Shown here in pieces: positions 7,583 through 64,000 of a stretch of 64,000 nucleotides of DNA. The DNA comes from Tatlockia sp. (GTDB lineage Bacteria; Pseudomonadota; Gammaproteobacteria; Legionellales; Legionellaceae). The DNA lies in assembly GCA_013697955.1 (NCBI GenBank), contig JACCVV010000064.1, forward strand, positions 3,076 to 67,075, given 5' to 3'. Made by a program: the position numbers and the translations under genes. The notes beneath the pieces were generated by a model. It was not told where the DNA came from. It made no database searches and saw only the letters and a program-made list of their open reading frames with translations. Positions within the stretch are counted from its first letter, which is position 1. Each line of letters opens with the position of its first letter.

Positions 7583-7586
7583 TTTC

Positions 7587-10556: not shown

Positions 10557-10653
10557 CCCTGTTTTTTGGGGATCAAACTTTAGAGCATGTTTGGGATAAT
10601 ACCCTTTATTACGCAGACATATTGATAAAAGACATACACCTGTTTACAAATAT

Positions 10654-19104: not shown

Positions 19105-19141
19105 ACATTCATTGAGAAACTCAATATGACTCAATGAATGT
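19105..19141 (-). terminator. Perfect 12-bp inverted repeat directly downstream of the folD-like stop; possible end of the PKS operon
   Basis: acattcattgag (19105-19116) pairs with ctcaatgaatgt (19130-19141) around a 13-nt loop. Only a short U tract (tgcttttgc) follows on the minus strand, so terminator strength is uncertain. Confidence 0.4.
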
Positions 19142-19152: not shown

Positions 19153-20229
19153 TTAAACCTGTTGGCCGTTGCGTTGCTCCGTAAAGGCCAGGTCTAATTC
19201 CTCATTGGAAAGTAAAGTGGTTTTCTTTTCTGTGGTAATTGGCTGAAAGAAAACCTGGTTGTTACTCTTCTCCTGAAGCCTTTCCCTGTCAATCAAGTGA
19301 TTATCAGAAGAAATATTCTCTAACTTTTTTACTATTTTTTTTTCTGCTGCATCGACTGTTTGTTGAATTAACATGGCAATAGTCATAGGGCCGACGCCAC
19401 CTGGTACGGGTGTATAAGCTAAACAACGAGTTTTGATTGTGTTTAATTCAATATCACCGGTTTTCAATTCGGGATGATATCCAGCATCAATAACTACCGC
19501 ACCATCCTTTATCCATTCGTCTTTAATAAAATTTGGTTTTCCAACTGCGCCAATAATTATATCCGCTTGAATAATAAAGTTTGACAACCCCTGAGTTTTT
19601 GAATGGCAGATGGTGGTCGTAGCATTTTTATTGAGTAACATCGCCGCCATTGGTTTACCTAAAATAGGACTTCGTCCAACTATGACAGCGTGCTTACCTT
19701 CAATCTCAATGCCATAATGGTGTAGTAAAGCCATAATTCCAGAAGGGGTCGCTGAGCCATAAGCAGGTTCGCCCATTGCTAATTTGCCATATCCGACGCT
19801 AGTCACTCCATCGACGTCCTTGCTTATATCAATAGCGTCAAAGCATTCTCGTTCATTTATATGAGATGGGAGTGGATGTTGTAATAAAATACCGTCAATT
19901 TTATCATCGTCATTAAGCTGTTTGATAACCTCGATAACCTTTTCCGTAGTCATGGTATCGCCATCAGGAAAGGAAAGTTTTTTTGATAGCATTCCAATAC
20001 GTTGACAGGCTTTTATTTTCATATTGACATAGGTTGTTGAAGCAGGGTCAACTCCTATTTGAACGGTTGCTAATAAAGGAAGTCGGTTTGTTTGTTGATA
20101 AAATTTTTGAACACGCTCAGATAGATTGGCTTCAATTTCAGCTACCAGAACCTTACTTGAAAGAACTTTTCCAAGTAAACGATTTTTTTCAACTGCCAGA
20201 GGTGTGCCTAAAAGAATTTTTTCTAACAT
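19153..20229 (-). CDS. folD: Bifunctional 5,10-methylene-tetrahydrofolate dehydrogenase/cyclohydrolase (FolD) with ~60-aa C-terminal extension
   Basis: Motifs are YVNMKIKAC, DGILLQHPLP, GRSPILGKPMAAML and PVPGGVGPMTIAML. It is 358 aa, whereas canonical FolD is about 285 aa. Confidence 0.9.
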   Translation of the reverse strand: MLEKILLGTPLAVEKNRLLGKVLSSKVLVAEIEANLSERVQKFYQQTNRLPLLATVQIGVDPASTTYVNMKIKACQRIGMLSKKLSFPDGDTMTTEKVIEVIKQLNDDDKIDGILLQHPLPSHINERECFDAIDISKDVDGVTSVGYGKLAMGEPAYGSATPSGIMALLHHYGIEIEGKHAVIVGRSPILGKPMAAMLLNKNATTTICHSKTQGLSNFIIQADIIIGAVGKPNFIKDEWIKDGAVVIDAGYHPELKTGDIELNTIKTRCLAYTPVPGGVGPMTIAMLIQQTVDAAEKKIVKKLENISSDNHLIDRERLQEKSNNQVFFQPITTEKKTTLLSNEELDLAFTEQRNGQQV

Positions 20230-20308
20230 AATGCTCTCCTATCTTCCACTTTATTGCAGAATGCAGCATATTATTACCTATCTTTCCTTGTTGCAACCGG
20301 ATTTCTGC

Positions 20309-21967
20309 TCATGGTTTTTTTCCTATACCCATAAATAGTTTTCGCATCATTATATGATCGCTATCTACTAACATAGTATTCCACTCCTTAACCAGCTCTG
20401 ATAATTGATTGCTTGATAAATAGCCCTGCTGCACAAGTTTCAGGGGGATCCCCATCCCTTCCGAGTCAAAAAATAACTGGTCACCGACAATTGCGTTGTG
20501 ACTTACCAACATGTCAAACTCAACCTCCTTAAAGCCTGCCTTACTAAGTAATGCGGGTAAAGAACGACCAATTGTAGGATGCCCTCCTTCCGCTTGCCGA
20601 CAATTTTTATAAGCATTATAAATCGCTTTTAATGCGCTAACCTTAGGGTATGTCCAGGTATGAAAATCAAAGTCATTATTGATTAAAACAACCGTCCCTC
20701 CCGGTTTTAACACTCGATAAATTTCAGCAAGTCCTAATGAGGGATCAGGTAAATGTTCTAATAATAACCTTGCAATGACAAAATCAAACTGATTTGATTC
20801 CAGTTGACTTGAAGTAATTGAATTTTGAACTAATGAGACCCTGTCCTGTAATTTTTTCTCATGTAAATTATGAGAAGCGTATTTTATCATTTCAGGATCC
20901 TGATCAAGGGCAGTAACTTTCACGGAATGGAAATGCTGGCAAAGCTTTGTAGTCAAGTAGGCCCAACCGCAACCGGCATCCAGAATTTTCATCCCGTCTT
21001 TTAAACCATAAGCCTGATACCGTTGCAATTCTTGTTTCCAGAAAAGATCGACTTGTGCTTGTAAACGTTTCAACTCATGACGTGCATTAATACTAATCGC
21101 TTCAAATTGATAGGATCCTGGTGCTGGTTTAGAATCTGTCTTTTCTTCAAGCCACACACGAATGACATCGGCTGCTTGCTGCCACTGATTTTCAAGCATC
21201 ATATCGTGAGCGCCAAAACTCAGAGTTTTCAATTCTCCTGAGTAAAAGCGTGCAGTATCCTTGGCTGCTTTTAAGCTTACAAACTTATCTCCCTTATCAG
21301 CAATCATTACTAAACAGGAAGACAACATCGCTGGTATCTGCTCAATTCCAAACAATTTAAACTCGGAAAAAACGCGTTTTGACTGTCTCTGAAACCGTTG
21401 CAAATAACCTTGCCTGGTTTCAGCTGTTAATTCTTTAGAAAAAAATAAAGCCTCTGGAACCTTGCCTTTCCCCTTATTAAATTTCATTAATTTGATAAAT
21501 TGCAATGGATGTCGCAGAGCTGAAAACACTGCAGCACGTGAGGCATTTCGAGGTTTTGGAGAGGCGAGCAAGATTATGTTTTTACATTGATTGTCTGTTC
21601 GTTGAAGATACTGTTGAACCACCACACCACCATATGAATGACCGATTAATACAGGAGGTTCTTCAAAGGTAGCTATTGTCGCTGCTACATCATCAACGTA
21701 ATGATTAAGGTTATATTCATCAAGTGCGTGATGACCCTCAGAGGCACCGTGACCTCGCAAACTCAAAGCATAAGCAGGATAACCGTGACTAGCCAAATAA
21801 GGCATAAAATGTTCTGCCCAACACCAGGCGGCATGAAAAGAACCATGAATAAATAATAAAGCCGGTTTATTCATTTTTTCCTGAGTCATACAGGATAGTA
21901 ATTCCAAATTAATAGCCCCAAATTGGGGGCAATTAACCACAACGGTGGATTGCTCAATAGTTTTCAT
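20309..21967 (-). CDS. Fusion protein: N-terminal alpha/beta hydrolase + C-terminal class I SAM methyltransferase
   Basis: 552 aa.
- Hydrolase part: LLFIHGSFH, nucleophile elbow GHSYGG, later IADKGD and GAHDMM.
- MT part: motif I ILDAGCGWAYL, then FDFVIARLLLEHL and LKPGGTVVL. Confidence 0.8.
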   Translation of the reverse strand: MKTIEQSTVVVNCPQFGAINLELLSCMTQEKMNKPALLFIHGSFHAAWCWAEHFMPYLASHGYPAYALSLRGHGASEGHHALDEYNLNHYVDDVAATIATFEEPPVLIGHSYGGVVVQQYLQRTDNQCKNIILLASPKPRNASRAAVFSALRHPLQFIKLMKFNKGKGKVPEALFFSKELTAETRQGYLQRFQRQSKRVFSEFKLFGIEQIPAMLSSCLVMIADKGDKFVSLKAAKDTARFYSGELKTLSFGAHDMMLENQWQQAADVIRVWLEEKTDSKPAPGSYQFEAISINARHELKRLQAQVDLFWKQELQRYQAYGLKDGMKILDAGCGWAYLTTKLCQHFHSVKVTALDQDPEMIKYASHNLHEKKLQDRVSLVQNSITSSQLESNQFDFVIARLLLEHLPDPSLGLAEIYRVLKPGGTVVLINNDFDFHTWTYPKVSALKAIYNAYKNCRQAEGGHPTIGRSLPALLSKAGFKEVEFDMLVSHNAIVGDQLFFDSEGMGIPLKLVQQGYLSSNQLSELVKEWNTMLVDSDHIMMRKLFMGIGKKP

Positions 21968-21983
21968 AAACGCTAATTCTCAT

Positions 21984-24900
21984 CTAAAAAGTAACAGCTG
22001 CTGATTGTTCAAGTAGTTGTCCCTGGTTGTTTATCATTGCCAAATTAAACAATGGCCTATTATTGGTTTGTATTTTTTGCATATACAAATAATGCTCTTC
22101 ATTATCATTAATTAATAAATTCCAATCGACATTAAATTGACTTTGCTGTAATTCAGGTTCTTCATGCCAAACCTCTTTTAGTAATTGAACATACATGGTG
22201 GTAACATTTGTTAGCGTTCTCGATTCACTATTAATGGTAGCCAAGGCTTCTTCATGATTGGTAACTATATTGACAAATAAATCCGGCCTTATTGGAAGAA
22301 TGGAAATTTGGCAGCGATCTTTTATCTGATTCACATTAATCAAAATGTTTTCATCTATTTTTTTTTCAAAATCAATATACCAATAACTATCTCTGGCAAA
22401 TGGGTAACCGGGTAATCGTAATCGAGAACAATTTTTCATAAATGATTGCCATTGAATAGAAAGGCCCTCTACCCAATGTTGGGCTATCTCTAGCAAAGTT
22501 ATCTCACTTAAAATTAGTGAATTATCTGGTTTTCTCACTTTATTTAAGAGTTCTGAATCAAGATTATGAACTACATTATCGACCGGCTCTAATCCGGTTT
22601 TAATCGCATTTAGTTTATTGATTAATTCCTCTTTTGTGCTCACTATCAAAGCAATCCGCCGTGGGAAATGCTCACGTCCGGTTTGCAGAGTAAAGGCAAG
22701 ATTGGCCATAAAATGCGCATCTTGCCGTTTTTCTTGTTGCAAATACTCAGATAACTGCCTCGTTGAGTCAATCAATTGCTCGGGATTTTTTGCACTGAGT
22801 ATCAATAAATAGGGGGGTAAGGCAGGCGCTTTATGTTCTATATTATTATTCTGGAACTCTTCAATAATAGCGTGCACATTAACCCCGCCAAATCCAAATG
22901 AACTGACACCGGCGCGCCTTGGGATAGGCTCATTAAAAGAAGACAATAACGGTTCCCAGATTTGGGTTTCCTGAACCGGATAGAATGGGGTCTCTGCTAA
23001 TTTTAGATAGGGATTTAATTCCTTGATATGTAAGGTTGCGGGTAAAATTTTATGTTGTAAGGCAAGGATTATCTTAATTAAACTTGCAATCCCTGCGGCT
23101 GACTCAAGATGACCCATATTGCTTTTTACAGATCCTAAGCCGCAATGCTTTGTCATGTTAGGCCCTTTTGAAAAGGCTTGGGTCAAACCTTCAATCTCGA
23201 CAGCATCTCCCAAGGTAGTGCCTGTGCCATGTAACTCTACATAGCTTATGGTACTTGAATCGACTTTTGCTTTTTCAAGTGCTGTTTTAATAACTGCGGC
23301 TTGTGAAGCAGGATTGGGTGCTGTCAAATGTTGGGCAAAACCACCATGATTCATAGCTATCCCTTTAATCACAGCATAAATGGGATCCTTATCAGCTATT
23401 GCAGCCTTAAGCGGTTTTAATAATACCAAACCTCCCCCTTCTCCCCTGACATACCCATTGGCATCCTTATCAAGAGATTTACATTTCCCATCGGGTGATA
23501 ACATCCCAGCCCGGCTAAAGGCTATGAAAGGAGTGGGTGATAAAATTACATTAATACCACCAGCCAAAGCCATTTTGCATTCTCCGTTTAATAAACTTTG
23601 AACAGCATGATAAACAGCCACCAGCGAACTCGAGCAGGCTGTATCAATGGTCTCACTCGGCCCATGCAAACCAAGTAGCCATGAAAGTCGATTGGGGATA
23701 ATGCAAGGAGAGATTCCTGTTAAAGCATGGCCGCCTGCATCTGCCATCGTTAATAATAATTGGGCATAATCATTAGTACTAACCCCTGCAAATACTCCCG
23801 TTTGTGTACCTGCGAGGCTGGAGGGTACTAAACCGGCATTTTCTATGCAATGGATAGCCAATTCCATAAACAAACGTTGCTGTGGGTCCATTAGGTTAGC
23901 TTCATGACGAGAGATTTTAAAATAATCCGCATCAAATTTGTCAATGTTTGATATAAATCCGCCTTTATTGGGTATCAGATCAGGATTTATGTCCCTGACC
24001 TTTTGATAAACCTCCTGCCAGTCGAAACGTTCGGGGGGAATTTCGACAACCATATCCGCGCCCGCTTCAAGATTTTTCCAAAATTTATTCAAATCCGATG
24101 ATTGTGGAAATAGGCCTGCCATGCCAATGATGGCAATCTCCGTATCACTGTTCTGCTGTATATTTTTTATATTTTCCTCAAGTTCAGAATTTTGAGTAAA
24201 ACTATTTGAGGGTTGGTGAAGATTTACCATTTTTTCTTGGTAATGTGCTAATAAATAGGTTATCAAATGGCCAAGTGAATTTTGGCCAAATAGCTCCGCC
24301 GGGCTTAAATCCAGATTATAAATTTCATTAATTTTAGTAGCAAAAACAGACAACGTAATAGAATCAAACCCATATTCGCTCATGGGCTGCTCAAGTGTGA
24401 TATCAGCCTCTGACAAATAAAGCATTTCGGATATTATATTTAGTAAATTTTTCTCTAATAATTGCGTTATTTCTGGCAAATAGTCAGCGCCATTTTTCAA
24501 AGGGCTCACAGATTCATTACTGGAGATTAAAGCTAATTGCTCCCTGAATTTTTCAGTTTGTCCTTGAAAATAAATCAGGTTAGGCGACTTGAATGCAAAA
24601 GCGTTGTTAAAAATCGCAATACCTTCTTCCCCGGAGAGTGGAGTGACCCAATCAAACTGTGGAAGTTGAAGTCCTTGTTCAGGTTTCATGCCGAAAGGTT
24701 GCCAGAGCGGCCAATTCATGGATAAAGTGATTCCTTTTCGCTCTCCCTTCAAAACTTGTTCTGCCCTAAAATTCGCAAATCCATCCAGAAAACCATTAGC
24801 CGCTGCATAATCTGCCTGTCCAGCCGATCCGGCAATACTTGCTAATGAAGAACAGATAAAGAAAAAATCCAGGGGTTCTGACGCGGTTATGTCGTCAAGA

Positions 24901-27900
24901 ACGAGGGTTCCTGTTATTTTTGCTTGGATTAGATGGTAAAAACTGAACCATGTTTTTTGTGTAAGTACGCGGTCATCAATCTGACCTGCTGCATGAATAA
25001 CTCCATCTATGAGGCCATACCTTAAATGAATATCTTCTTTAACAGCCAACATTGAAGCCAAATCACAGACATCTGTACTGTAATATTTTATCTTTGTTCC
25101 CAAGGATTCTATCTTAGCTATTTGTGCAAGCAGTTTATCATTGAGTTTTGAACGTCCTATCCAAATTAATGTTGCCTGATAATTACGCGCTAAAAATGTC
25201 GATAGTTCATAGCCAATGTAGCCACCACCTCCAGTTATCAAATAAATACCATTTTTCTTGAAAGGCTGGCTTGAAAAATCATTTGAGGCAATATCAGGCT
25301 TACTCTCAACAAACTGTTTAATCCATCGTTCTGTCAGATTCCTTTTTATTTCTTCTATTTTAAATGGTTCAATTAACAATTCATCAAGAGCAAGTGAAAG
25401 CACGTTTGAAGGCGTTACCTCTTGATTAAAATTTACTGTTTTCATTTGAATATGATGGTTTTCACGCCATATTGAACGGGAAAAAGCAGCCACTGCGGAA
25501 TTAAATGAGTTTAGTATTGATGAGTCTTGCAAGATGTGAACAATGCGAATATTTTTTGGTAAATTTAACTGCATTAAGGCCTTAGCGAGGAAAAATAATG
25601 GTCTGAGTATTTGCTCATATCCACCTGCTTTTACTGCGTGGTCCAGATCATCAGAAAAAAATAAGATCTCACCCGATTTCAGAAAAATTTCAGGTAAAAA
25701 TTTATGATAATCCTCTTCCTCCATGGCATTTATTTCATAGGTTGATGTATTTATATTCCGGCATTGTTCCCCTAACAGAACATGAATGAATTCAACCGAA
25801 TTGTTAACTTGCCGCCTATCTTGCAGACATAGCATGCTTCGACTGAAAATTAAAACAACCTTTGGTTGATCAAAGGGTTTATGAACACCAAGATTCGAAG
25901 CAGTCCATTGAGGCTGAAAAAAATCGCCAGATAAATTCACCAAAACAGGGTTTTGAAGAGTTTTTATCGCTTGAATTTTTCGTAAAGACAATTCATTTAT
26001 TTTTAATACAACCTTCCCTTCTTCATTAAAAATAACAACATCATAGGCAAGGTTAGCGTTTCTTTTCTCCAGTATTTTACAGTAAGCATAAAGGCGTGAT
26101 GAAAAGGAAGCGTATTGAATTACCTCTTTAATAGAAAAAGGTATCCATTTATCAGTTATTTTTTGGTTGATTCCGATAGCAGTAATCGTTTGGATAGCCG
26201 CATCAACAATAGAAGGATGTAAGGATTCTGAAGGATAGAGTCGCCAAAGATCCTGTTCTATATTAATCAAACTTAGCGATTCTTGCTCGTTATTCCACCA
26301 TTGCTCAATGGCTTGTAAACTTTCTCCGTACTCATATCCCATCAATTGTAATGTCTTATAAATTTCTGCCTTGGAGGAGGTTTGACCGCAGCGCGTTTTT
26401 ATTTCAGCTAACTCAAGATCATTAATGCCTTCACTAAAATCTTCTTCAATTTGACAGGTGGCATGTTCAGTGATGGCGTCTCCATTTACAGTCACAAGAC
26501 TTGCTTGAAATTGATTGCCAATGGGTAGCACCCTTAGCTCAATTTTGGTGAGGTCTTCCACAACAATTGGGCGTAACCAAATCAATTGTCTGAACTTGAT
26601 AAATTTGCCCTTTAGATCGGAAACGAATGACATTGCGACTCTAACCATTTCAATTTGCGCAACTGCTGGTAATAAAAATTGCCCGCCAATTTTATGATCA
26701 GATATTATTTTATCGGCTTTTGAAAAAACTTTGCCGTAGATATACTTATCGCCTTCACGATAATACCCGTCAAGCAACGGATGATTGATAACTTTGTGAT
26801 AATTTTCACACTTGATTGGGCTATATTGCTTTCGATTGAAGGGATAACCGGGTAAATGTAATCGAAGCCTCCGGTTAGCCGCATAAATGCTTTGGAAATT
26901 AATTGTGCCCCCTGCGAGATAATATTCAGAAAGCTTTCTCAATACTTCATCATAGGTTTTAGAATCAGATTCACAGGATAGTAAGCGGGTTATTAGCTGG
27001 TCCTCGGATGCAGGACTCAAAGTTAATTTGCAAGAATTGTCGCTTATCACATTGGTCGAACCAGAGACTTGTAAAAGAGCGTTCATTAACTCTACTTTAG
27101 TGGTAACAACCCAGGACATTCTCTTTGAAAAATGGGTACGACAGAGATTCAAACTAAAACTTAAATCCTCCAGATTGCAATCCTTGCCTTCATTCTGCAG
27201 CCAATGGTGTAAATTAGCGGCCATTTTTACAAGTTCAGTGTTTCGTTTTGCTGATAAGTTAATTAAACAGGGTTTAGCAATAAATTTATTGCCTGGCTTA
27301 TCCCCAAGGTTTGTGAACTCTTCAAGAACCATGTGGCAATTCGTACCACTAAATCCAAATGAACTAAGAGCTGCTCTGCGTGGTTGATTTGTAATTTGCT
27401 TCCAATCAATCAATTTATCAACAACAAAAAAAGGACTATTAGCAAGATCGATGTTTTGATTAGTATTCTTGTAATGAATGCTTGCCGGCAACTTCTTATG
27501 CTTCATTGCCAAAATTAACTTAATTAATCCAGCACTTCCTGCGGCCGCCAGCGTATGACCTATATTGCTTTTTGATGAACCTATCCCGCAAAATTGTTTC
27601 GCATCTGTAAAATGCAAAAACGCAGATTTAATGCCCTCAACCTCGATAGGATCCCCTAATTTTGTACCTGTTCCATGCATCTCGACATAAGATAGCGTTT
27701 GAGGGTTGATATTGATTTTTTCATAAAGGGATCGTATCAAGTTCGTTTGGGATAATGCATTCGGAGCAGTGAGCCCATTGCTTTTTCCATCCTGATTTAT
27801 GGCCGATCCTTTAATTACTGCATAAATACTATTTCCATCAGCAATGGCGTCTTTCAATGGCTTTAATATAATCATACCCACACCTTCTGCAGGTACAAAA

Positions 27901-36368: not shown

Positions 36369-36429
36369 TTTTTTCTCAGCTTATTAGGATGTGTTTACAT
36401 ATCAACCACTATTGGAAAGGTAAACAGAA

Positions 36430-56000: not shown

Positions 56001-59000
56001 TTTTAATAAAGTAATCAAGCTTTACCACTACATCAGAGACAGATAAAGCATAAAATCCAAGGCGCTTGTTAAAATGATTTTTACCAACTGCCAGTGTATA
56101 AGCAAGATCCGGCAGAGAGAGGCTTCTCAATTTTGACTGACAAAAATCCAGTATTTTTTTGCAATAATTAGACAAAGCAACTGTGGTTTTTGCAGATATT
56201 ACTATCAAGTACTCTTCTTGGTGAGGATAAACTGGCTGCTCAATGATAGGTGGCTCTTCCAATACAACATGAACATTTGTCCCACTTGCACCAAAAGAAT
56301 TGATAGCAGCACGGCGGGGACTGGGGCCAGCCTGTTTCCATTCCGTCGTGGCTGTTTCTACGTAAAATGGAGTCTGCTGTAAATTTAAATACTGATTTTC
56401 TTGTTGATAATGCAATGAGGCAAATAATTTTTTTTCTTTGAATGCGCATAGTATTTTAAGCAAACCACAAATACCTGATGCTGTCATTGTATGGCCGATA
56501 TTGGTTTTTACCGAACCAATTGCACAAACCTGGTTTTTGCTGACTGATTTTCTAAAGGTATTGGTTAAGGACTGTATTTCAATAGGATCACCTAATTTCG
56601 TCCCTGTACCATGGGCTTCGATATAGCTGATTGTTGCAGGATCAATAGCATATTGCTCATATACTTTTCTTTGAACTGCTGTTTGTGCAGCAGTCATAGG
56701 TGCTGCTATGCCATTGCTTTTCCCATCATGATTGATTGCACTGCCAAGCACGACTCCATAAATATGATTTTTATCACGTATGGCATCTTGTAAGGGTTTT
56801 AATACTACGCAACCTACAGCTTCACCCATGGCAATACCATCAGCATTATTGTCAAATGCTTTGCACTGACTGGGGGATAGCATTTTTGCCGCATCCAAAA
56901 CCAAATGTGATTTTGGTCCATAGAGTAGATAGATTCCTGCAGCGATTGCAGATTGACATTCTTTGCGCAAAATACTCTGACATGCCAGATGAAATGCTGT
57001 TAAGGAGGAGGAACACTCTGTATCCACTACCAGACTTGGTCCTCGCAAATTAAAACAATGCGAAATCCTGGCAGCTAACATCCCTGCCGCATTACCGGTT
57101 AAAAAGAAAGTCCCTGCCTCTTCCCTGTTAACCTGCAGAGGATCCAGATAATTACCGGCTTTAGCTCCAATGAAAACTCCAATTTCCTGAGTCTCAGATT
57201 GCGAGACTGTATACCCGGCATCTTCAAAAGCTTTCCAGGCCTCTTGCAACAAAAGTCTTTGTTGAGGATCCATATATTGAGCTTCAAGCGGCGACATATT
57301 AAAAAATTCAGCATCGAATTGGTCAATGTCATTGAGAAACCCACCCTCATAGGAGCGTTCTAGTTGCCAGTAATTCGGCCAGTCTTGTAGTGCTTGACGT
57401 TCAGGAGAAAGCGGTCTTATTGAGTCAACTTTGTTTAAAAGATTGTCACAAAATTTTTCTATATTTTCAGCGTCAGGAAATTGCCCGGAAATACCTACAA
57501 TTGCTATGTGATTAGACCTATCCACTCCGTTTTCTGGGTCTATACTCTGGTGACTTACAACAGATCTTTGCAATTGTTTGGGCACTGAAAAAATCGCTCG
57601 TATATCTTGTAAGCAAGTGTCCTCAGTTCCAACAATAACTTTTTTTTCCTGCCTAGGTTCGGGAGAAACAATAACCGGAATTTCTTTTTGAATCGTTTTT
57701 TTGCAAATAAATTCTGCTAAATCAGCTATTGTTTCGTATTCAAATAAATCCATTGGCTGTAGCTGAATCTTCAATTGAACATTAAGTTTATTGACCATCT
57801 CAATCAATGATATTGAATCAATCCCGAGTTCAGAAAATGCTTGAGCCTCATTAAGGTCTGAAATATCAACATATAATATAGATGCTACACAGGCGCTTAT
57901 AGTCCTTAACACCTCGGGTTTTGATAGGGATTCCGGAAAGAGTTTTTTGGAATCTACAGCATTTTTTTTCCCGACAATCACAGCTTGTGAGACACTATTT
58001 TCACTGTGGTCATAGGGGACGCCATGCAAGTTTGAAACCGTTAAATGGGCATCATCGAGTAATTTTTTCCAGTACAAACTATCAAATAAAGGAGAATGCT
58101 CGATTCTATCTTCTGGGTTGGTAAATTCCCACCAACCATCTAATAAACCAAAAGTCAAAGTCAAATAAAAACTGACAGCAGTAGCTTCATTGATAATAAG
58201 TTTAGAATTTGGCTCCAAAATATTATCAATAAATTTTAAGGTTTTTTTGATATCTTTTGCGACGTGTAAAACGTTGGTAGCCAAGATGGCATGAAAATAT
58301 TGTGGCAAAAAACCCTGCTCTTCAAAACAATTATTAATATCCAGTTTTTTAAACAGGATAAAAGGATATTGTTGAGTTAATCGTTGTCGACCATGATTTA
58401 AAAAGGCCTGTGAAACATCGGTGTAATAATATTCAACAAGACCTTTATGCATTGCTATTCGCGGCAATAGAGCGATTGAACTGGCCCCTGTTCCCGCACC
58501 CAATTCCAGGATACGGGTAACCACTCCTTTCTGGCTGTTTTCAAGCAGTATTTCATCTAATTCTTCAATCATCACTTGGTTTAGATAATGGGCAATCGGC
58601 GATTGTCCATATATTTTTTCCATAAAAGAAAAGGAATCGCCTTCAAAAAATAACTGGACGATTTCAATATCCCCTCTTAGTACCCCCAGGTATTGAGCAA
58701 ATATTTTTTGAATTAAAATGATGTGATTATCCAGATTTGGAAATTCTCTTTTAATTTTCCGAGTTAGATCGGTAATTAATTGGTCAAGCTCGTATGATGT
58801 TTGCTGAATAAATTTAGATGTTGGCTTAATTAGCGTCTCGTTAGAAAGCCATCCATTTTTAACCAGTAGAAAAATAACCGCAGAGAAATGTTTTTGGTAT
58901 TTATCCTTAATATTTAATTTTTCAGAGAGGACTTCAAGGCTATAGTTTTTATTAAAATCTTCCTCATCGAAGATATAGCGAATAAGCAATAGCTCTGCGA

Positions 59001-60186
59001 GTTGATTCAAATATTGCTGACTATCAATAGCCGCTTGCTTGTCCAGCACCTGGGGTGCTGATTTCTTTGACAAGAGATTCTGATTAAGTAGCGAAGGACT
59101 CTGATAAATAACTGTGCTGTCGATTGGACAATTAAGTGCCTCAATTTCTGACAGAGCCTCTTTAAGCAAATCAGTTTCCGAAATCTGCTCAAACCAGGAT
59201 GCACCAGTACGAATTATCTTTAAGTCGGGCCGAAGCGATGAAGATATTTTGCAGGTGTAGCCTGATAAAGTTTGACCAGGTCCTACTTCAACACAAATCC
59301 TAAGGTCATTCATGGAGCAAATAGTATTGATTCCAGCTTCAAATTGCACTGGTTTACAAAGATGTTCGCCCCAATACTCAGGAGCACTTAGTTGCTCTGC
59401 GGTTATCCACCTGCCGGTAATATTAGAAATATAAGGAATTGCTGGCGGACAAATAGGGATATTTCTTGCACTATCGACTAAATTCTTTGCAGCAGGTCGT
59501 AATAATTCCGAATGAAAAGGATGCGTTGTCCTTAACCGCTGACAAACTATTCCCTCACGCTCTAGCCTGGATCGTAAACGTTCAACAGATTCATGGGTAC
59601 CTGAAACAACAGTAAGATATTTTTCATTTACAGCAGATACCCAGATATCCTCGCCAAGCGAGCCAAGTTCATGGACATTTAAAGGTATGGCTAACATTGA
59701 ACCTGAAGGGAGTTTATCAATCGCAGCAGCCCTTACAGACACTAATTTTACAGCATCCTGAAATGATAAAACTCCAGACAAGCAGGCAGCAACATACTCA
59801 CCAATACTGTGACCAAGCATTGCATCCGGTCTAATGCCAAAGCTCATAAGTTGACGCGCGAGTGCATACTCAATGGCAAAACAGGCAGGCTGAGCTATCG
59901 TTGTGGCTTGGGCATTTAAGTCAGCCTGATTAGTGGTTCTTCCTAATAAAGCAAGCAAATCAACCGTTTCCCCGGTTTTTGAATCTACCTTATTTTTAGG
60001 AAGTTCTTCGGGGTACAAAAACTCAATCAAATCAATATTCAGATGCTTTTTAAAGGCCAAATTCGCACGACAGATCTCTTCCCAAAAAACACCATGCTGC
60101 TCATATAGTGTCCTAAAACTGCCTGGGTATTGATCTCCAACCCCGGGAAAAAGAAAAACGATTCCCGGTTTGCTCATCGGCAGCAT
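53071..60186 (-). CDS. Trans-AT type I polyketide synthase PKS-A: AT-cMT-ACP-KS-DH-KR-ACP
   Basis: 2371 aa with an ATG start at 60184-60186. It overlaps the upstream ACP gene by 13 nt. Motifs are listed in the sub-features. Confidence 0.95.
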   Translation of the reverse strand: MLPMSKPGIVFLFPGVGDQYPGSFRTLYEQHGVFWEEICRANLAFKKHLNIDLIEFLYPEELPKNKVDSKTGETVDLLALLGRTTNQADLNAQATTIAQPACFAIEYALARQLMSFGIRPDAMLGHSIGEYVAACLSGVLSFQDAVKLVSVRAAAIDKLPSGSMLAIPLNVHELGSLGEDIWVSAVNEKYLTVVSGTHESVERLRSRLEREGIVCQRLRTTHPFHSELLRPAAKNLVDSARNIPICPPAIPYISNITGRWITAEQLSAPEYWGEHLCKPVQFEAGINTICSMNDLRICVEVGPGQTLSGYTCKISSSLRPDLKIIRTGASWFEQISETDLLKEALSEIEALNCPIDSTVIYQSPSLLNQNLLSKKSAPQVLDKQAAIDSQQYLNQLAELLLIRYIFDEEDFNKNYSLEVLSEKLNIKDKYQKHFSAVIFLLVKNGWLSNETLIKPTSKFIQQTSYELDQLITDLTRKIKREFPNLDNHIILIQKIFAQYLGVLRGDIEIVQLFFEGDSFSFMEKIYGQSPIAHYLNQVMIEELDEILLENSQKGVVTRILELGAGTGASSIALLPRIAMHKGLVEYYYTDVSQAFLNHGRQRLTQQYPFILFKKLDINNCFEEQGFLPQYFHAILATNVLHVAKDIKKTLKFIDNILEPNSKLIINEATAVSFYLTLTFGLLDGWWEFTNPEDRIEHSPLFDSLYWKKLLDDAHLTVSNLHGVPYDHSENSVSQAVIVGKKNAVDSKKLFPESLSKPEVLRTISACVASILYVDISDLNEAQAFSELGIDSISLIEMVNKLNVQLKIQLQPMDLFEYETIADLAEFICKKTIQKEIPVIVSPEPRQEKKVIVGTEDTCLQDIRAIFSVPKQLQRSVVSHQSIDPENGVDRSNHIAIVGISGQFPDAENIEKFCDNLLNKVDSIRPLSPERQALQDWPNYWQLERSYEGGFLNDIDQFDAEFFNMSPLEAQYMDPQQRLLLQEAWKAFEDAGYTVSQSETQEIGVFIGAKAGNYLDPLQVNREEAGTFFLTGNAAGMLAARISHCFNLRGPSLVVDTECSSSLTAFHLACQSILRKECQSAIAAGIYLLYGPKSHLVLDAAKMLSPSQCKAFDNNADGIAMGEAVGCVVLKPLQDAIRDKNHIYGVVLGSAINHDGKSNGIAAPMTAAQTAVQRKVYEQYAIDPATISYIEAHGTGTKLGDPIEIQSLTNTFRKSVSKNQVCAIGSVKTNIGHTMTASGICGLLKILCAFKEKKLFASLHYQQENQYLNLQQTPFYVETATTEWKQAGPSPRRAAINSFGASGTNVHVVLEEPPIIEQPVYPHQEEYLIVISAKTTVALSNYCKKILDFCQSKLRSLSLPDLAYTLAVGKNHFNKRLGFYALSVSDVVVKLDYFIKNGDLPQPALTSGSPAAREILNDYLLGKDISFKELFSRQGGKIIPLPHYSFAKETHWHRAANTGQVNKVEQQQVQFYDQKNIENSLETFWKNYQPDDPILLGHSINDQKLLPGSYLLDMSYQIAFSGMQAEHWQLSEFVLASSFLVDTEPCRLQMTRAQQQESIVITLFSQQAEQHARAVFIKQKNVPANYLTESVQAISERCDKKLSQKLFYQQLKQHKVVLGKMFQVLDNISYNRNEIISDIKINRLPFSLNTTLPCQLIEGAFQLVACLLSETKDTHYLPFSIEKLVVHKKLDDEHKIYGRIEKESAATQFITLNLFILGQNGDLYASLYGVSFKGIAKALHFPVTQNPHLYYFVPQWDSAEVENKQKMTSLDYEATLFFVNHLEPAYQQGIVVEPGEKFSQFGPRQFTINPLCQSDYDLLFDALLKEKVTLKSLIYNWQLSRDFQQQELFFSEQASSPIMAEMEKLFLLVKSFLKTTWRASCKLAIIAPYNSYVGRLIASSTNSFLKVLTVEHPELKSKLIMISSTLLEQSRDLLRTVEKEMAIESPPGAVYYSESNERLQRQYRLIEQPTEQLHSISFRKKGIYLLAGGLGGIGQKISAYLSKEYQATLIILGRTPMNHSLYESILSIEQGGGRVYYISVDINDCVVLHKTIIEIKKRFGPLNGVIQLAGVLADNFFLYKSQKDFHSVLAPKIKGTLNIDRATADEPLDFFILFSSLASIAAIPGQCDYAAANGFLDEFAGIRTELVQAKKRKGHTIAINWPYWQEGQMLLSKQLQVDMQQAGLDILPDEQGLKALLTLMMQPYSQAVVVYTNDLQPMGNWLMGNETKIYSAPSLVNSEKNEEGILLNKHEEVLENYLVSTLADLIKLSADRISLSDPMEKFGLDSVLALSFVEKLQKNWGPLPKTLLFEHNTLGKVANYLQQNHAPAVNQFNQPVDMTIKESDLVKKLPVSQQIESLSEEMIDGLIEMLSD
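53212..53445 (-). other. PKS-A ACP2 followed by a helical tail
   Basis: aa ~2248-2325; FGLDSV with Ser2285. The tail is SLSEEMIDGLIEMLSD. Confidence 0.85.
53692..54264 (-). other. PKS-A KR (B-type LAD motif)
   Basis: aa ~1975-2165; motifs AGGLGGIG, VLADN, GQCDYAAAN. Confidence 0.85.
54967..55749 (-). other. PKS-A DH (variant second motif)
   Basis: aa ~1480-1740; H1497 in HSINDQKLLP. The DxxxQ position reads IEGAFQ, with Glu1657 instead of Asp. Confidence 0.7.
56251..57510 (-). other. PKS-A KS
   Basis: aa ~893-1312; DTECSSS (C1058), EAHGTGT (H1192), NIGHT (H1232). Confidence 0.9.
57697..57924 (-). other. PKS-A ACP1
   Basis: aa ~755-830; LGIDSI with Ser791. Confidence 0.85.
57967..59034 (-). 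other. PKS-A C-methyltransferase domain
   Basis: aa ~385-740; motifs ILELGAGTGAS, TNVLHVA, LLDGWWEFTNPEDRIEHSPLF. Confidence 0.85.
59227..60168 (-). other. PKS-A N-terminal acyltransferase domain (canonical)
   Basis: aa ~7-320; FLFPGVGDQYPG, GHSIGE (Ser127), Arg152 at the FabD Arg117-equivalent position, HPFHS. Confidence 0.85.
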
Positions 60187-60443
60187 TCCTCAGACTGGGC
60201 CATAGTGTATTCAGTTTTTTTAGCAAGAAAGGCACAGATATTGTGGATCGTATTAAAATTGCTGACTTTTAAATCTTCGTTTTCAAATCTAATGCTAAAC
60301 TGTTTCTCAAGAAAATTTACAATTTGAAGTGCAAAAAGTGAGTTTACAAAGCCGAGCTGAAATATATCACTCTGAGCATCAAGATATTCTACATTGAGAT
60401 GCTTGCACAAAAAATTACGAACCGGTTCTTCGATATGCTTCAT
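60174..60443 (-). CDS. Discrete acyl carrier protein (FkbJ/ZmaD-like position)
   Basis: 89 aa. LGFVNSLFALQIVNFLE carries the candidate phosphopantetheinyl Ser. It sits between the FkbH-like gene and PKS-A with overlapping ends. Confidence 0.8.
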   Translation of the reverse strand: MKHIEEPVRNFLCKHLNVEYLDAQSDIFQLGFVNSLFALQIVNFLEKQFSIRFENEDLKVSNFNTIHNICAFLAKKTEYTMAQSEECCR

Positions 60444-61474
60444 AAAAGGGTACTCTTAATCTTAATATAAGCAGGAATATTCAAAGGATTCTCCATGTTA
60501 CACTCCAAAAGAAAGTTAATATTGTCCGAATGAATTTCTTCAAATCCATTGAATTTATAGGTGATATACATCTGACGATTAACATCGTTTGAAATAAATT
60601 TAGCTTGCAACTTAAGAGAGGCTTTAGAGGCAAGTTGATGTATAAATGCGATTAAGGTGTTCACAATATTGCGCGACATGACTCGACAAGACACCAGCAA
60701 TAAATTTATCACCCAGGCTTCAGCAGTTTTCTCAATCAAAGTTAAACCAATGGTACCGTAAGACCCATATTTATCCTCTAAAGAGCAAGATAGGACCTCG
60801 TGTTTTTCAGAATGCATATAATGATGTAACTCATCATAGGTGTAAGTAATTCCCGTTGTATTTAATTGATTTGTGCGAATAGTTAGTTCCTCAGCACGTT
60901 TTAAGTCATCTTCTGAAATGCGATTGATTGACAGTTGTAAATTCAACTCTTTAAGAAAATCAATATTAGACCCAAAGGATTGCTCAGCCTGCTTCCGTAC
61001 TTCATCAATTTGATAATATTTTCTTCTTTGCGCTGATTCCGCAGTAATAAATCGGGGAATACAGGCTTGGTTGTTAGGGAATTCTAAAGCCTCTTCGGGG
61101 GTAAAAGTCATGACGGTAGGATGTTTTGATTTTACTTCATCCAATTCGAATATTTGATCATCTACAAAAGCGATGGAATCCACAGCAATATTGATATTTC
61201 TAGCAATATTCTCAATAGAAATTGATTTATCATTCCAGTTAATTTCGGGATAAATAAAATAGTCCCATAACCCCAGTTCAATTAGTTTTTTTTCAGCTAA
61301 AACATAATCATTCCTACTTGCAATAGAATGAAGAATTCCGCGATTATCCAGTGTTTTTATGACCTGAACGAGATTTAGATTGAGATAAACAGGCGTATTT
61401 TCCAGAAGCACCCCATCCCAAATAGTATTATCCAAATCCCATATAATACATTTGATTTTATTAATCTTGTCCAT
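60440..61474 (-). CDS. FkbH-like HAD-superfamily phosphatase / glyceryl-ACP-forming enzyme
   Basis: 344 aa. It has HAD motif I (IWDLDNTIWDG) and a C-terminal LLLVSCRVMSRN, which matches the conserved SCRV Cys motif of FkbH/OzmB-type enzymes. Confidence 0.85.
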   Translation of the reverse strand: MDKINKIKCIIWDLDNTIWDGVLLENTPVYLNLNLVQVIKTLDNRGILHSIASRNDYVLAEKKLIELGLWDYFIYPEINWNDKSISIENIARNINIAVDSIAFVDDQIFELDEVKSKHPTVMTFTPEEALEFPNNQACIPRFITAESAQRRKYYQIDEVRKQAEQSFGSNIDFLKELNLQLSINRISEDDLKRAEELTIRTNQLNTTGITYTYDELHHYMHSEKHEVLSCSLEDKYGSYGTIGLTLIEKTAEAWVINLLLVSCRVMSRNIVNTLIAFIHQLASKASLKLQAKFISNDVNRQMYITYKFNGFEEIHSDNINFLLECNMENPLNIPAYIKIKSTLL

Positions 61475-62622
61475 TATTCATAATTTCCTAAAAAACTTTT
61501 CCCGATAAGAAGACGCATAATTTCATTAGAGCCTTCAATTAACTCACATACTTTTGCATCGTGTATAAAACGTCTTATCGGAGAATTTTCGTGATAGCCT
61601 TCTGCACCATAAATTTGTAGGGTGTCGTTGGCTGTTTGAGAGGCAAGTCTTGCACTGACATACTTTGCAATCATCACATCCTCTAGGGCATCTAGAAAAT
61701 TTTGTTCCATTTTAGTGCCTGCATTTTTACAGAGCAAACTGACAATCTTTCGATTCGCGAGCATATCTGAAATCATTGCGCTAATTAATTGAAAATCAAT
61801 GAGCCTGGATCCATCCGGACGGCTTCGCTGTACTTTTTTTTGAACAAGAGAAATGCAGGCATCAATAATGCCCAAGCAGCCACAGGAAACACTATAGCGA
61901 CCTAAGGTTAACGAACGTGTTGCAACAAAACTGAGGCCAATACCGGGCGAACCAATAAATTGTTCTTCTTTAACCAAAACGTCATCAAAACATATTTCTG
62001 CAAGCATTGAAGCCGATTTTCCCAATGCATTTTGAATGGGTTTGATACTGATATTTGGCGAATCCGTTGGCACCAGAATAGCAACAGGATGTTCACCGTT
62101 TAACTTTGCAAAAACTAACAATACATCAGCAACTTGTCCAAAAGACACCCATACTTTGTTGCCTCTCAAATAATAGTCAGATTTTTTTATCAGAATAGTT
62201 TGAATTTTATCAATACTAGAACCCAGATCAGGCTCTGTTAATGCAAATGCAGCAATAATTTTGCCCGCGGCCAACTGTGGCAACCAGGCTCGTTTTTGAC
62301 TTTCATTACCAAAGCCCTGGATCGCCTCAGCAACCATGTCATGAACTGTCAACAAGGATCGTATAGAAGAACAAGCCTTCCCTACCATCCTGGTTAATTT
62401 TCCATAACTCGTATAACTTAGACCCAAACCTCCATACTCCTTATTGATCAACGTCCCAAGCATGTCCTGAGAGGCTATTTTTATAATCAAGTCCAATGGG
62501 AGTTTAGCTTCCAGGGCAAACTGGTTTGCAAAAGGTGCTATTTGTTCTTGAACAAATCTATGCGAGGCTCTAAGAAAGCTGGATTCATCTACTGTTTGAT
62601 CAATTTCATCACATCCTCTCAT
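61474..62622 (-). CDS. Acyl-CoA/acyl-ACP dehydrogenase (FkbI/ZmaE-like position)
   Basis: 382 aa. The ACAD fold is recognisable (AFALTEPDLGSS, YGAEGYHENSPIRRFIHDAKVCELIEGSNEI). Confidence 0.85.
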   Translation of the reverse strand: MRGCDEIDQTVDESSFLRASHRFVQEQIAPFANQFALEAKLPLDLIIKIASQDMLGTLINKEYGGLGLSYTSYGKLTRMVGKACSSIRSLLTVHDMVAEAIQGFGNESQKRAWLPQLAAGKIIAAFALTEPDLGSSIDKIQTILIKKSDYYLRGNKVWVSFGQVADVLLVFAKLNGEHPVAILVPTDSPNISIKPIQNALGKSASMLAEICFDDVLVKEEQFIGSPGIGLSFVATRSLTLGRYSVSCGCLGIIDACISLVQKKVQRSRPDGSRLIDFQLISAMISDMLANRKIVSLLCKNAGTKMEQNFLDALEDVMIAKYVSARLASQTANDTLQIYGAEGYHENSPIRRFIHDAKVCELIEGSNEIMRLLIGKSFLGNYE

Positions 62623-63460
62623 ATTGGTATAATCCTATTCCTGTTTTGCGACCAAACTGACCTTGTTCAACTAAATCGACCAATAATTTAGCTGGCATAT
62701 ACATTTCTTGTTGAAATTCGGAATAAAGTACATTGAGAGAATGAAGAACCGTATCTAAGCCAATCAAATCAGCAGTCATTAAAGGCCCCATTTTATGACC
62801 TAAACATTTAACAAATAATTCATCAATGTGAGCGGCCGTTTGACATAGATTCTCCTCAAAAACCTTGATCGCTTCATTGAGGGTAACCATAAAAACTCTA
62901 TTAATAACAAAACCAGTTTTATCCTCGACTATAACTCCGGACTTTCCCAGTGAAGATAACATTTCACGAGCTCTATCCAAGGTTTCTTGAGAGGTCAAAT
63001 TGGTTCTGATTATTTCGACAAAAGATTTGATGGGGGCAGGGTTCATAAAATGAATCCCTAACATTCGATGAGGGTAATCTATAAAAGGAGTTAAGGATTT
63101 AATTGAAATACAAGATGTATTGATTACAACCAGACAATCGGGCTTGATAATTATTTTTAATTGGCTAAGTAGAGAGCTTTTTAATTCGAAAGATTCGGTC
63201 GTATTGTCAATGAGATAATCACAGCACGCTAACTCACTAATGTCCTGGCTCTTGTGAATAAGTTTTTTTAATTCATCAAGCTTCTTTTTGGGATTGCCAA
63301 AAAAACATTGCGTTTTATAGCTTTGCTCGAGTAATTCGTCAACTTTATTCAATACACTTTGCTGATTATCAATCAATATTACATTATAGTTATGTTCTGC
63401 AAAAACATAGGCAACGCCAATACCCATTGTACCCGCACCAAAAATTCCCACCGTTTTCAA
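62609..63460 (-). CDS. 3-hydroxyacyl-CoA/ACP dehydrogenase, NAD-binding (FkbK/ZmaG-like position)
   Basis: 283 aa. N-terminal Rossmann motif VGIFGAGTMGIGVA, with the 3HCDH-type core (GIHFMNPAP, GFVINR). Confidence 0.85.
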   Translation of the reverse strand: MKTVGIFGAGTMGIGVAYVFAEHNYNVILIDNQQSVLNKVDELLEQSYKTQCFFGNPKKKLDELKKLIHKSQDISELACCDYLIDNTTESFELKSSLLSQLKIIIKPDCLVVINTSCISIKSLTPFIDYPHRMLGIHFMNPAPIKSFVEIIRTNLTSQETLDRAREMLSSLGKSGVIVEDKTGFVINRVFMVTLNEAIKVFEENLCQTAAHIDELFVKCLGHKMGPLMTADLIGLDTVLHSLNVLYSEFQQEMYMPAKLLVDLVEQGQFGRKTGIGLYQYERM

Positions 63461-63504
63461 AATCTTTTATCCTTATATCAACCATTACGAATTTATTAAA
63501 AAAA

Positions 63505-64000
63505 TCAGGAACAAATTATACTTTTATTCAACCAATCTGCGGTTGCATACATCAATTTCTCGGCTATCTTATCGACATGACGGTTGCGCCAATTCTCCAG
63601 GGAAGAGCCCTTAACCCACTGATTGAAAGCTCCGAGCGCTGGTCCTGTATGGATTTGATAATTAACTCGTTGCTGTTTATCCCCTTTCAAAGCTAAGCGC
63701 ATTGAGTGAATAAAATACCATCTGAAAACAAGCGCCATTTTTTGTTTATCATTTTTTTCTGCTCTCTCTATTTCCTGAGGAGAGCTCTGTAGGTAGTAAT
63801 TTTTAGTTTCTGAATAAACCTCTTCGAAGCTTCGTCCAAAATAGGTTGTTTCTATCTGCTGGCGAAGTGTTTCATCGATATCTTCCCATCGGCTATAGTT
63901 GCGCCATAATTCATATAATTTATTAGCACGTGTTGGAAAAAAAACTCCTTTTTTCATAACTTGAACTTTTGCACCTATTTCAAACATATCACCAGCAGGT
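63505..64000 (-). CDS. PfaD-family trans-acting enoylreductase (C-terminal part; gene continues beyond the window)
   Basis: The frame stays open to the edge (..PAGDMFEIGAKVQVMKKGVFFPTRANKLYELW...MALVFRWYF...GPALGAFNQWVKGS). This matches the conserved C-terminal half of PfaD/PksE-type FMN oxidoreductases. Confidence 0.85.
   Translation of the reverse strand, partial: PAGDMFEIGAKVQVMKKGVFFPTRANKLYELWRNYSRWEDIDETLRQQIETTYFGRSFEEVYSETKNYYLQSSPQEIERAEKNDKQKMALVFRWYFIHSMRLALKGDKQQRVNYQIHTGPALGAFNQWVKGSSLENWRNRHVDKIAEKLMYATADWLNKSIICS

Follow-up and report, generated by a model that had tools for sequence, protein, structure and literature searches.

A trans-acyltransferase polyketide synthase locus in a Legionellaceae genome that ends in a FolD paralogue with serine at position 8

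Genes of the locus and their domains

The stretch of DNA analysed here (called the window below), 64,000 nucleotides (nt) of a contig from a metagenome-assembled genome (MAG) of Tatlockia sp., an uncultured relative of Legionella (Legionellaceae), carries from 19.1 kb to beyond 64.0 kb a single unbroken run of minus-strand genes, mostly overlapping or abutting, among them four giant polyketide synthase (PKS) genes and, as the last gene, a paralogue of folD. An earlier note, made from the letters of the DNA, had described the region as a PKS with acyltransferases (AT) acting in trans; this core stands, while the note had overlooked a precursor cassette next to the PKS genes, a hydrolase-methyltransferase fusion and the FolD paralogue itself. 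The features are listed here in the direction of transcription, with PKS domains abbreviated as ketosynthase (KS; KS0 if non-elongating), acyl carrier protein (ACP), ketoreductase (KR), dehydratase (DH), C-methyltransferase (cMT), O-methyltransferase (OMT) and thioesterase (TE); MT is methyltransferase in general, SAM is S-adenosylmethionine, and lengths are in amino acids (aa).

63505-64000, minus strand: PfaD-type trans-acting enoyl reductase (ER), C-terminal part (Pfam FabD_helical_ins), running off the right edge
62609-63460, minus strand: 3-hydroxyacyl-CoA dehydrogenase family protein (putative FkbK-like step; Pfam 3HCDH_N and 3HCDH)
61474-62622, minus strand: acyl-CoA/acyl-ACP dehydrogenase (putative FkbI-like step; Pfam Acyl-CoA_dh N, M and C; MBA2710965.1)
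60440-61474, minus strand: FkbH-type phosphatase/acyltransferase, for glyceryl loading onto the free ACP (TIGR01686, HAD-IIIC)
60174-60443, minus strand: free-standing ACP of 89 aa (FkbJ-like carrier; motif GFVNSL; Pfam PP-binding, E 1.1e-5)
53071-60186, minus strand: PKS-A, 2371 aa, AT-cMT-ACP / KS-DH-KR-ACP
48437-53071, minus strand: PKS-B, 1544 aa, KS-KR-ACP-TE
47469-48440, minus strand: predicted PksD/PedC-type acyl hydrolase, 323 aa, AT fold with motifs GYSLG and YPFH
36430-47472, minus strand: PKS-C, 3680 aa, ACP-cMT-KS-KR-ACP / KS0-OMT-ACP / KS-DH-ACP
47233-47445, minus strand: N-terminal loading ACP of PKS-C (aa 10-80, motif GITS), the fourth PP-binding stretch of that protein
21984-36368, minus strand: PKS-D, 4794 aa, KS-DH-KR-cMT-ACP / KS-ACP / KS-DH-KR-ACP / KS with a 115-aa tail and no ACP
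20309-21967, minus strand: fusion of an alpha/beta-hydrolase (aa ~30-275) with a class I SAM-dependent MT (aa ~283-551), 552 aa (Pfam)
19153-20229, minus strand: FolD paralogue, 358 aa (both Pfam domains; NCBIfam NF010788), last gene of the operon
20155-20160, minus strand: codons of Ser24-Ser25 of the FolD paralogue, equivalent to E. coli positions D7-G8
19096-19141, minus strand: terminator-like hairpin with 12-bp arms ACATTCATTGAG / CTCAATGAATGT, a 13-nt loop and the T-rich tail TGCTTTTGC

The domain map was drawn from Pfam, from phmmer searches with seeds cut from the window itself, and by inspection of the gaps between domains. It gives 9 KS, 10 in-line ACP, 5 KR, 4 DH, 3 cMT, 1 further MT and 1 TE over the four megasynthases, the same counts that the earlier note had reported for its four giant minus-strand reading frames, the lengths of which are likewise borne out. 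The Cys-His-His set is intact in eight of the nine KS domains, in agreement with the eight or so elongations expected before; the second KS of PKS-C reads EVQAVGH where EAHGTGT is expected, so that the HGTGT histidine is lost and the domain is a KS0. The phosphopantetheine serine is kept in all ten ACPs, the catalytic His plus Asp or Glu in 4/4 DHs, and the TE of PKS-B has its GxSxG motif as GYSFG, together with Asp and His. In the 'LDD' regions of the five KRs we read LAD, VED, LSD, LED and IDD, the motifs on which the note had assigned them to the B-type; the KRs of PKS-B and the first of PKS-D have YxxxC in place of YxxxN, and in that of PKS-C a Tyr stands two residues past the His of the catalytic column. 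The DH of PKS-C (36862-37632) looks intact, with catalytic His and the Asp of DxxxQ, yet its KS-DH-ACP module has no KR.

Three C-methylations and one probable O-methylation had been predicted, and the MT domains agree with this. The PKS-A domain, one of the three C-MTs and the one compared with solved structures in this way, scores 167 bits against DisA and 134 bits against CurJ and is by sequence a C-MT of that type; the second-family MT of PKS-C scores 133 and 130 bits against StiD and StiE and is likewise by sequence an O-MT. Open reading frames of at least 150 aa gave no match to the Condensation, AMP-binding, HMG-CoA synthase or ECH families, as the claim of neither nonribosomal peptide synthetase nor beta-branching parts would have it. 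An integrated AT follows none of the nine KS domains, each of which leads into a linker and then an LPxYxFxxxxYW-type motif, and the accessories typical of trans-AT systems are all present (a KS0 module, in-line MTs, a PfaD-type trans-ER, an acyl hydrolase and a split module); both points uphold the trans-AT assignment. The only ER is, as the earlier note had it, a free PfaD-type protein whose gene is cut by the upstream edge: extended by 739 nt past this edge with the help of assembly GCA_020063875.1, the protein reaches 410 aa and matches TIGR02814 (pfaD_fam) with 620 bits over profile positions 38-443 of 444, being still short of some 37 N-terminal residues in that extension.

The FolD paralogue at the end of the operon

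The most informative gene of the locus is the last one. Its product scores 413 bits against NF010788, below the equivalog cut-off of 475, and is 70-73% identical to the ordinary FolDs of its clade. It keeps Y50, K54, Q98 and G261, while Ser24-Ser25 replace the Asp-Gly pair of E. coli positions 7 and 8; this numbering is sound because the E. coli FolD sequence on which it is based matches PDB 1b0a at 287 of 288 residues. Position 7 is Asp in 103 of 120 aligned FolD sequences, which then have the Asp-Gly pair. Of the 118 closest homologues, 117 have Gly at position 8 and the other is truncated at this point, and Ser occurs only in two copies linked to biosynthetic gene clusters; in the alignment of these 118 homologues position 8 is the sole core site where both cluster-linked FolDs depart from a residue that is conserved to at least 99%. 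The protein also carries a 60-aa K/E/Q-rich C-terminal extension (19153-19330) and a 20-aa N-terminal one (20170-20229), which are kept in an 87%-identical copy from ERR11523670 and are absent from nearly all others of the 118 homologues. For comparison, the housekeeping-type FolD of a related Legionella-like MAG has 281 aa, is 70% identical, and stands in an icd-clpS-clpA-folD context.

The FolD gene lies 80 nt downstream of the hydrolase-MT gene on the same strand and has its own ribosome-binding site (AGGAG); no promoter-like site was seen in the 80-nt gap. The terminator-like hairpin begins 12 nt past the FolD stop codon and was read directly from the sequence, being too A+T-rich for the scanner; it is likely the 3' end of the operon. 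A diverged relative of the locus, a 3.2-kb contig of ERR11523670 with 89.7% nucleotide identity, retains the junction between the hydrolase-MT and FolD genes; past the FolD stop the DNA is unrelated, with synteny ending at 19132.

Five spontaneous E. coli mutants resistant to carolacton showed four changes between them, of which G8S arose twice; the altered enzyme keeps 21% of dehydrogenase and about 1% of cyclohydrolase activity with a raised half-maximal inhibitory concentration of carolacton, the structural explanation being that helix alpha-11 is pushed against the carolacton carboxylate by whatever side chain position 8 carries (PMC5688156). As the last gene of the locus is a FolD with this carolacton-resistance substitution, we suggest by analogy that the paralogue is a resistant self-protection copy of the target of the product, and that this target is FolD. 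An in-cluster resistance gene of this kind turns an anonymous PKS into a target-specific hypothesis. FolD, or MTHFD, is an under-used antibacterial and anticancer target, and to our knowledge carolacton is its only known natural-product inhibitor. The explanation that we prefer as a whole, and hold to be moderately probable, is that 19.1 to beyond 64.0 kb forms one minus-strand operon, in which a trans-AT-type modular PKS is accompanied by genes for precursor supply, proofreading, tailoring and self-protection, the FolD paralogue being the last of these.

Assembly line and predicted product

The genes for FkbH, free ACP, acyl-CoA dehydrogenase and 3HCDH protein are contiguous at 60174-63460, directly upstream of PKS-A, all with family-level matches. 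The FkbH protein exceeds the TIGR01686 cut-off of 146.65 with 252.7 bits; the best NCBIfam match of the 3HCDH protein is 3-hydroxybutyryl-CoA dehydrogenase, under cut-off, and its role in an FkbK-like step is suggested by the context of the cassette. Such a set, with an FkbH protein, an ACP and two dehydrogenase types, is what the FK520 and zwittermicin pathways use to make hydroxymalonyl-ACP. The locus resembles the corresponding genes there (FkbGHIJK and ZmaN/D/G/E) in having FkbH, a dedicated ACP and the two dehydrogenases, here as one contiguous block, and differs in that neither an FkbG-type O-MT nor a ZmaA/ZmaF-type AT was identified in the window. Pfam finds no FkbG-type O-MT in 19153-64000, the class-2 O-MT at 1575-2591 lying 17 kb off and outside the conserved block; we therefore expect the extender to be hydroxymalonyl rather than methoxymalonyl, supplied by the cassette for what would be one alpha-hydroxylated extension. 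The residue before the phosphopantetheine Ser is Asn, not Asp, in both the free ACP (60174-60443, VNS) and the ACP of PKS-B (49391-49582, GLNS), which may hint that the free carrier of hydroxymalonyl and the ACP of the last module belong together as a pair.

AT folds occur twice, where the earlier note had placed them: at the N-terminus of PKS-A and in the free 323-aa protein. The reading of the latter as an AT did not hold. Against the PDB it scores 194.3 bits with PksD (8avz), the next match reaching 115 bits, and it has Gln at the position of the carboxylate-binding Arg117 of FabD, as PksD does; with PksD the closest structure by far and Arg117 missing, its sequence identifies it as an acyl hydrolase of the PksD type, with a predicted role in proofreading, and not as a loading AT. 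It shares the AT fold and the Arg-to-Gln change with bacillaene PksD and pederin PedC, PksD being its best solved relative, and differs from PksD in reading GYSLG where that protein has GSSLG. We also considered the 323-aa protein as an AT for ACP-bound extenders, since GYSLG is found in ZmaF too, and rejected this on the same two grounds. The signature of ATs for ACP-tethered extenders is GYSxG together with hydrophobic residues at the RXR positions (PMC4207774).

The PKS-A domain, with GHSIG, a retained Arg117 and HPFH, is the only competent AT in the window, where a trans-AT system would be expected to draw its malonyl units from a free-standing one. Its top PDB match is ZmaA, a hydroxymalonyl-ACP AT, by a narrow margin (166.7 vs 160 bits); specificity for hydroxymalonyl, suggested by this match and by a 'VCQ' motif, was rejected as unproven because 64%-identical ATs in KS-AT-sulfotransferase-ACP proteins of Legionella sp. 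share the motifs, including VCQxLRTTHPFHSELL, and the domain is predicted to be a cis-type malonyl AT. These nearest relatives, five proteins of about 1400 aa from Legionella sp. or metagenomes, resemble CurM/OLS-like terminal-olefin modules, which suggests that the AT was recruited from another Legionellaceae PKS. The whole N-terminal AT-cMT-ACP part of PKS-A aligns over 92% of its length with cyanobacterial KS-AT-MT-ACP modules and most likely completes, as a split module, the ACP-less last KS of PKS-D. The earlier statement that no extension module has an AT thus stands insofar as none of the nine KS domains is followed by one, and becomes doubtful for this split module. The 115-aa tail of PKS-D (21987-22331, aa 4680-4794) has no Pfam match and resembles nothing else in the cluster; it could serve in docking to PKS-A.

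The 552-aa fusion has the catalytic motifs of both its halves, GHSYG and His254 in the hydrolase and ILDAGCG in the MT. Relatives of the MT half found in an exhaustive HMMER search are 40-47% identical, and those checked with Pfam are MT-ACP didomains, either alone or at the N-terminus of a PKS or nonribosomal peptide synthetase, with one fused to an AT; a metagenome scan with the whole protein returned only relatives of the hydrolase half, 26-64% identical (most 35-40%) and on high-GC contigs. In aurantinin biosynthesis, the UbiE/BioC-like MT Art28 methyl-esterifies malonyl on the N-terminal ACP of Art10, and the BioH-like esterase Art9 removes the methyl ester in the last step, a protecting strategy reported mostly from trans-AT PKSs (PMC8302727). 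The likeness is in a trans-AT PKS that has an ACP at the start of its first protein (PKS-C here), in a putative UbiE/BioC-like MT that the product methyls do not need, in an alpha/beta-hydrolase of the cluster, and in a carboxyl terminus expected to arise via a methyl-ester protecting group; the difference is that the putative esterase and MT are here fused in one protein, and the comparison was made at the level of families, with sub-threshold matches. As the N-terminal ACP of PKS-C and the fusion match the aurantinin picture, they most likely prime the line with the methyl ester of malonyl-ACP and later unmask the terminal carboxylate; if so, the locus extends the Art28/Art9 logic of initiation to a fused enzyme.

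The TE lies in PKS-B, the second megasynthase gene, so that gene order is not working order. Among the four proteins, only PKS-C starts with an ACP, only PKS-A starts with AT-cMT-ACP, only PKS-D ends in an ACP-less KS, and only PKS-B has a TE; the order PKS-C, PKS-D, PKS-A, PKS-B fits all four of these constraints and leaves the adjacent gene pairs C-D and A-B consecutive, and we infer that it is the likely one. One group of KS domains, {B, D2, D4, C-KS0}, carries an NHGG-type motif; in the other, {A, C1, C3, D1, D3}, the motif is of the NQDG/NHDG type. Nguyen and colleagues are said to have found in 2008 that KS sequence tracks substrate in trans-AT systems. Under the order C-D-A-B, the first group holds exactly those KS domains that are fed by KR-containing modules, and the second those fed by the starter, by unreduced or by O-methylated intermediates.

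On this order, malonyl would be placed on the N-terminal ACP of PKS-C and its free carboxyl methyl-esterified by the MT half of the fusion, following the logic of Art28 and BioC; the starter would supply C1-C3. Module 1 (M1), made up of KS-KR-ACP and KS0-OMT-ACP of PKS-C, would then give a beta-methoxy group (C3-OMe), with the N-terminal cMT acting on C2 or C4, and M2 (KS-DH-ACP of PKS-C, no KR) would leave a keto group at C5. In PKS-D, M3 (KS-DH-KR-cMT-ACP) would form an alpha-methyl enoyl (C7=C8 with C8-Me), M4 (KS-ACP) would leave a C9 keto group, and M5 (KS-DH-KR-ACP), served by the PfaD-type ER in trans, would yield saturated C11-C12. M6, the last KS of PKS-D together with AT-cMT-ACP of PKS-A, would add the alpha-methyl C14-Me beside a C13 keto group, M7 (KS-DH-KR-ACP of PKS-A) would form the enoyl C15=C16, and M8 (KS-KR-ACP-TE of PKS-B) would set a beta-hydroxyl at C17, and C18-OH if hydroxymalonyl is used here, before releasing the chain at C19. 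The PksD-like acyl hydrolase would clear stalled ACPs along the way, and after release the hydrolase half of the fusion would remove the methyl ester, so that C1 ends as a carboxylate.

Read in this way from sequence, the product would be an acid or macrolactone of about C19, partly reduced, with three C-methyl groups and one O-methyl group, resembling carolacton, and it is probably a carolacton-like FolD inhibitor. Carolacton has a C1 acid, C3-OMe, C4-Me, a C5 ketone, C6-Me, C7=C8(Me), a C9-O-lactone, C10-Me, C14-Me, C15=C16, C17-OH, C18-OH and the lactone carbonyl at C19; this structure is consistent with the formula C25H40O8, with the 33 heavy atoms implied by atom label O33, and with papers that mention an ester oxygen at C9, an allylic alcohol at C17 and a 12-membered ring. 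With carolacton of Sorangium cellulosum (PMC5688156) the prediction shares a 19-carbon backbone from a malonyl starter and eight extensions, and, in register, the terminal carboxylate, C3-OMe, the C5 keto group, C7=C8 with C8-Me, saturated C11-C12, C14-Me, C15=C16, C17-OH, both carboxyl termini and TE release; the colinear prediction matches two or three of the methyls, hydroxymalonyl could provide the alpha-hydroxyl beside the ester carbonyl, and the FolD of the cluster carries the resistance substitution G8S. The producer of carolacton is a myxobacterium, in contrast to the gammaproteobacterium here.

Several points weigh against the explanation we prefer, and against the carolacton comparison in particular. 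Carolacton has five C-methyls as opposed to three C-MTs here, leaving C6-Me and C10-Me unmatched, and there is no KR for the positions equivalent to its C9-OH and C13-H2; the structure that served for the comparison was checked only against formula, atom count and the statements on C9 and C17. The KR of M1 (PKS-C, 43075-44244, aa ~1077-1466) reads GQSDHGYANHFLD, with His in the column of the catalytic Tyr. The neighbour-joining split of the KS domains has a bootstrap support of 113/200 only. The MT half of the fusion scores 59.8 bits with UbiE and 57.1 bits with BioC, and the hydrolase half 28.5 bits with BioH, all below the cut-offs and, for BioC and BioH, far below. No AT in the window has the signature for ACP-tethered extenders, the motifs of the PKS-A AT being common to ordinary Legionella cis-AT modules. 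A search for a second, housekeeping folD of the same genome yielded four candidates, each of them from another assembly or sample, and the sequence seen ends inside the PfaD-type ER gene. Given the misfits at C6-Me and C10-Me and in the reduction of C9 and C13, we expect a congener of carolacton as the product more than carolacton itself, short of the minimal modules using domains of adjacent modules; that the cluster makes carolacton or a close congener is possible, but we would not count on it.

The FolD gene might also have nothing to do with resistance, and be either the ordinary FolD gene of the organism, adjoining the operon by chance, or a helper that raises the one-carbon and SAM supply, since the pathway calls for five or six methylations. 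This would suit the many SAM-dependent MTs, the retention of all catalytic and binding residues but Gly8, the identity to ordinary FolDs of the clade, which is within the range of orthologues, and the lack of a demonstrated second copy. We nonetheless regard it as unlikely: the context of the gene is unlike that in the related MAG, its unusual terminal extensions are conserved in the ERR11523670 copy, and its linkage to the hydrolase-MT gene is kept while the flank changes. In addition, a substitution that costs the E. coli enzyme so much of both its activities would be an odd choice for a helper, or for the sole FolD of a cell.

Other assemblies of the line would lead to a product unlike carolacton. 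PKS-A could load the chain through its AT-cMT-ACP part, which resembles a loading module, with D, C and B to follow, or the proteins could work as two lines (A with B, and C with D), given that A and B alone would make a complete small PKS with a terminal TE; the docking-like C-terminal tails of PKS-A and PKS-C are alike, so that they do not discriminate between partners. The order A-D-C-B, however, breaks both adjacent gene pairs, places a C-MT after its ACP and mis-sorts two KS domains in the two-group split, while PKS-C and PKS-D as a separate line would lack any domain for release; an ACP partner is required for the last KS of PKS-D, and the N-terminal ACP of PKS-C and the Art28-like MT fit initiation at PKS-C. 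We thus consider such assemblies rather improbable, and still less probable is a product in which the first KR is dead and the KS0-OMT module methylates the enol next to a retained C1 methyl ester, giving a beta-methoxyacrylate-type head group as in respiratory-chain inhibitors. The His in the catalytic column of the PKS-C KR would agree with it, and a methyl-ester starter is plausible; yet the O-MT is closest to StiD and StiE, enzymes that act on beta-hydroxyl groups, the KS0 falls among KS domains placed after reducing modules, the hydrolase fused to the MT argues for removal of the ester, and the resistance-like gene encodes FolD, not cytochrome b or a Rieske protein.

Returning to the preferred order and a FolD-directed product, the components are all of known kinds: a trans-AT PKS, a hydroxymalonyl cassette, an acyl hydrolase, methyl-ester priming and target duplication. 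We found no characterised cluster with this architecture, protein homologues having been compared for proteins below about 1600 aa, and the candidacy for an undescribed metabolite claimed in the earlier note stands within that range; the homologue lists for PKS fragments omit even the megasynthases of the window itself, which makes the absence of Sorangium or megasynthase matches uninformative. In the searchable literature we found neither a gene cluster for carolacton nor any connection between carolacton and a trans-AT PKS, and a paper devoted to self-resistance genes in PKS clusters does not mention FolD or Legionella. The known Legionella polyketides, legioliulin, legionellol and one uncharacterised product, come from different clusters; the legioliulin PKS of Legionella dumoffii and L. 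parisiensis is also a trans-AT system of Legionellaceae, in the 'AT-poor' style typical of the genus, but has a cinnamate starter and an aromatic isocoumarin product; no FkbH cassette, FolD or hydrolase-MT is reported there, and its architecture is unrelated (PMC5126622, PMC5640695).

If our suggestion on FolD is right, the locus could lead to new FolD inhibitors, would supply a resistance marker ready for use in heterologous expression and would be a natural test of the G8S resistance mechanism, and it would hint that relatives of Legionella use antifolate chemistry against competitors or hosts. If the product is indeed carolacton or a close congener, this would be the first carolacton-type gene cluster in public data, and from an amoeba-associated Legionellaceae bacterium, not a myxobacterium; it would combine a naturally evolved resistant FolD (Ser8) with a fused esterase and O-MT that mask and unmask the pharmacophoric carboxylate, and M2, M4 and M6 would have to borrow the missing KR or cMT activities from neighbouring modules.

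Relatives and surroundings of the locus

Exact look-ups give the proteins the accessions MBA2710948-MBA2710965, on a contig of 74,199 nt. The locus is also present in the Logan assembly of SRR11719877 (contig of 60,297 nt) and, at 99.9% identity, on a 15.8-kb contig of GCA_020063875.1, where a frameshift splits PKS-A into 1385 and 985 aa (positions 4563-11677 there); this is due to an error of assembly or else marks a pseudogene of that population, and the gene is intact in the window (53071-60186). A scan of genome contigs with the 3HCDH protein gained no related genomes, its sole match being unrelated at 31% identity. The window as a whole has a G+C content of about 38%, and the cluster genes equal their flanks in G+C and in G+C at third codon positions (GC3); we therefore do not see the cluster as a recent import.

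No tRNA and no Rfam family was found within the window. A small island at 151-4443, 15 kb from the PKS, consists of genes for a MATE transporter, for a class-2 O-methyltransferase that has a dimerisation domain, and for a further MATE-like protein; it is probably not part of the cluster, since the ERR11523670 contig does not match the window past FolD. The gene at 7587-8741, for a PHB-depolymerase-family esterase, stands out with a G+C of 0.485 and a GC3 of 0.478, all neighbouring genes being near 0.37 and 0.31; it has the look of a gene recently gained by horizontal transfer. The product of 12920-16342 is an SF1-type helicase of 1140 aa (AAA_11/AAA_12) with DUF5710 at its N-terminus and one stretch that weakly resembles DotZ. 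Just beyond the cluster boundary lies the F-box-like neighbour of the earlier note, at 16512-17810, which is named an F-box protein by NCBI and whose product carries Pfam CBUA0006_C, a Coxiella-type domain; it adjoins a reading frame of 225 aa without any family (17978-18655), and both genes look like effectors.

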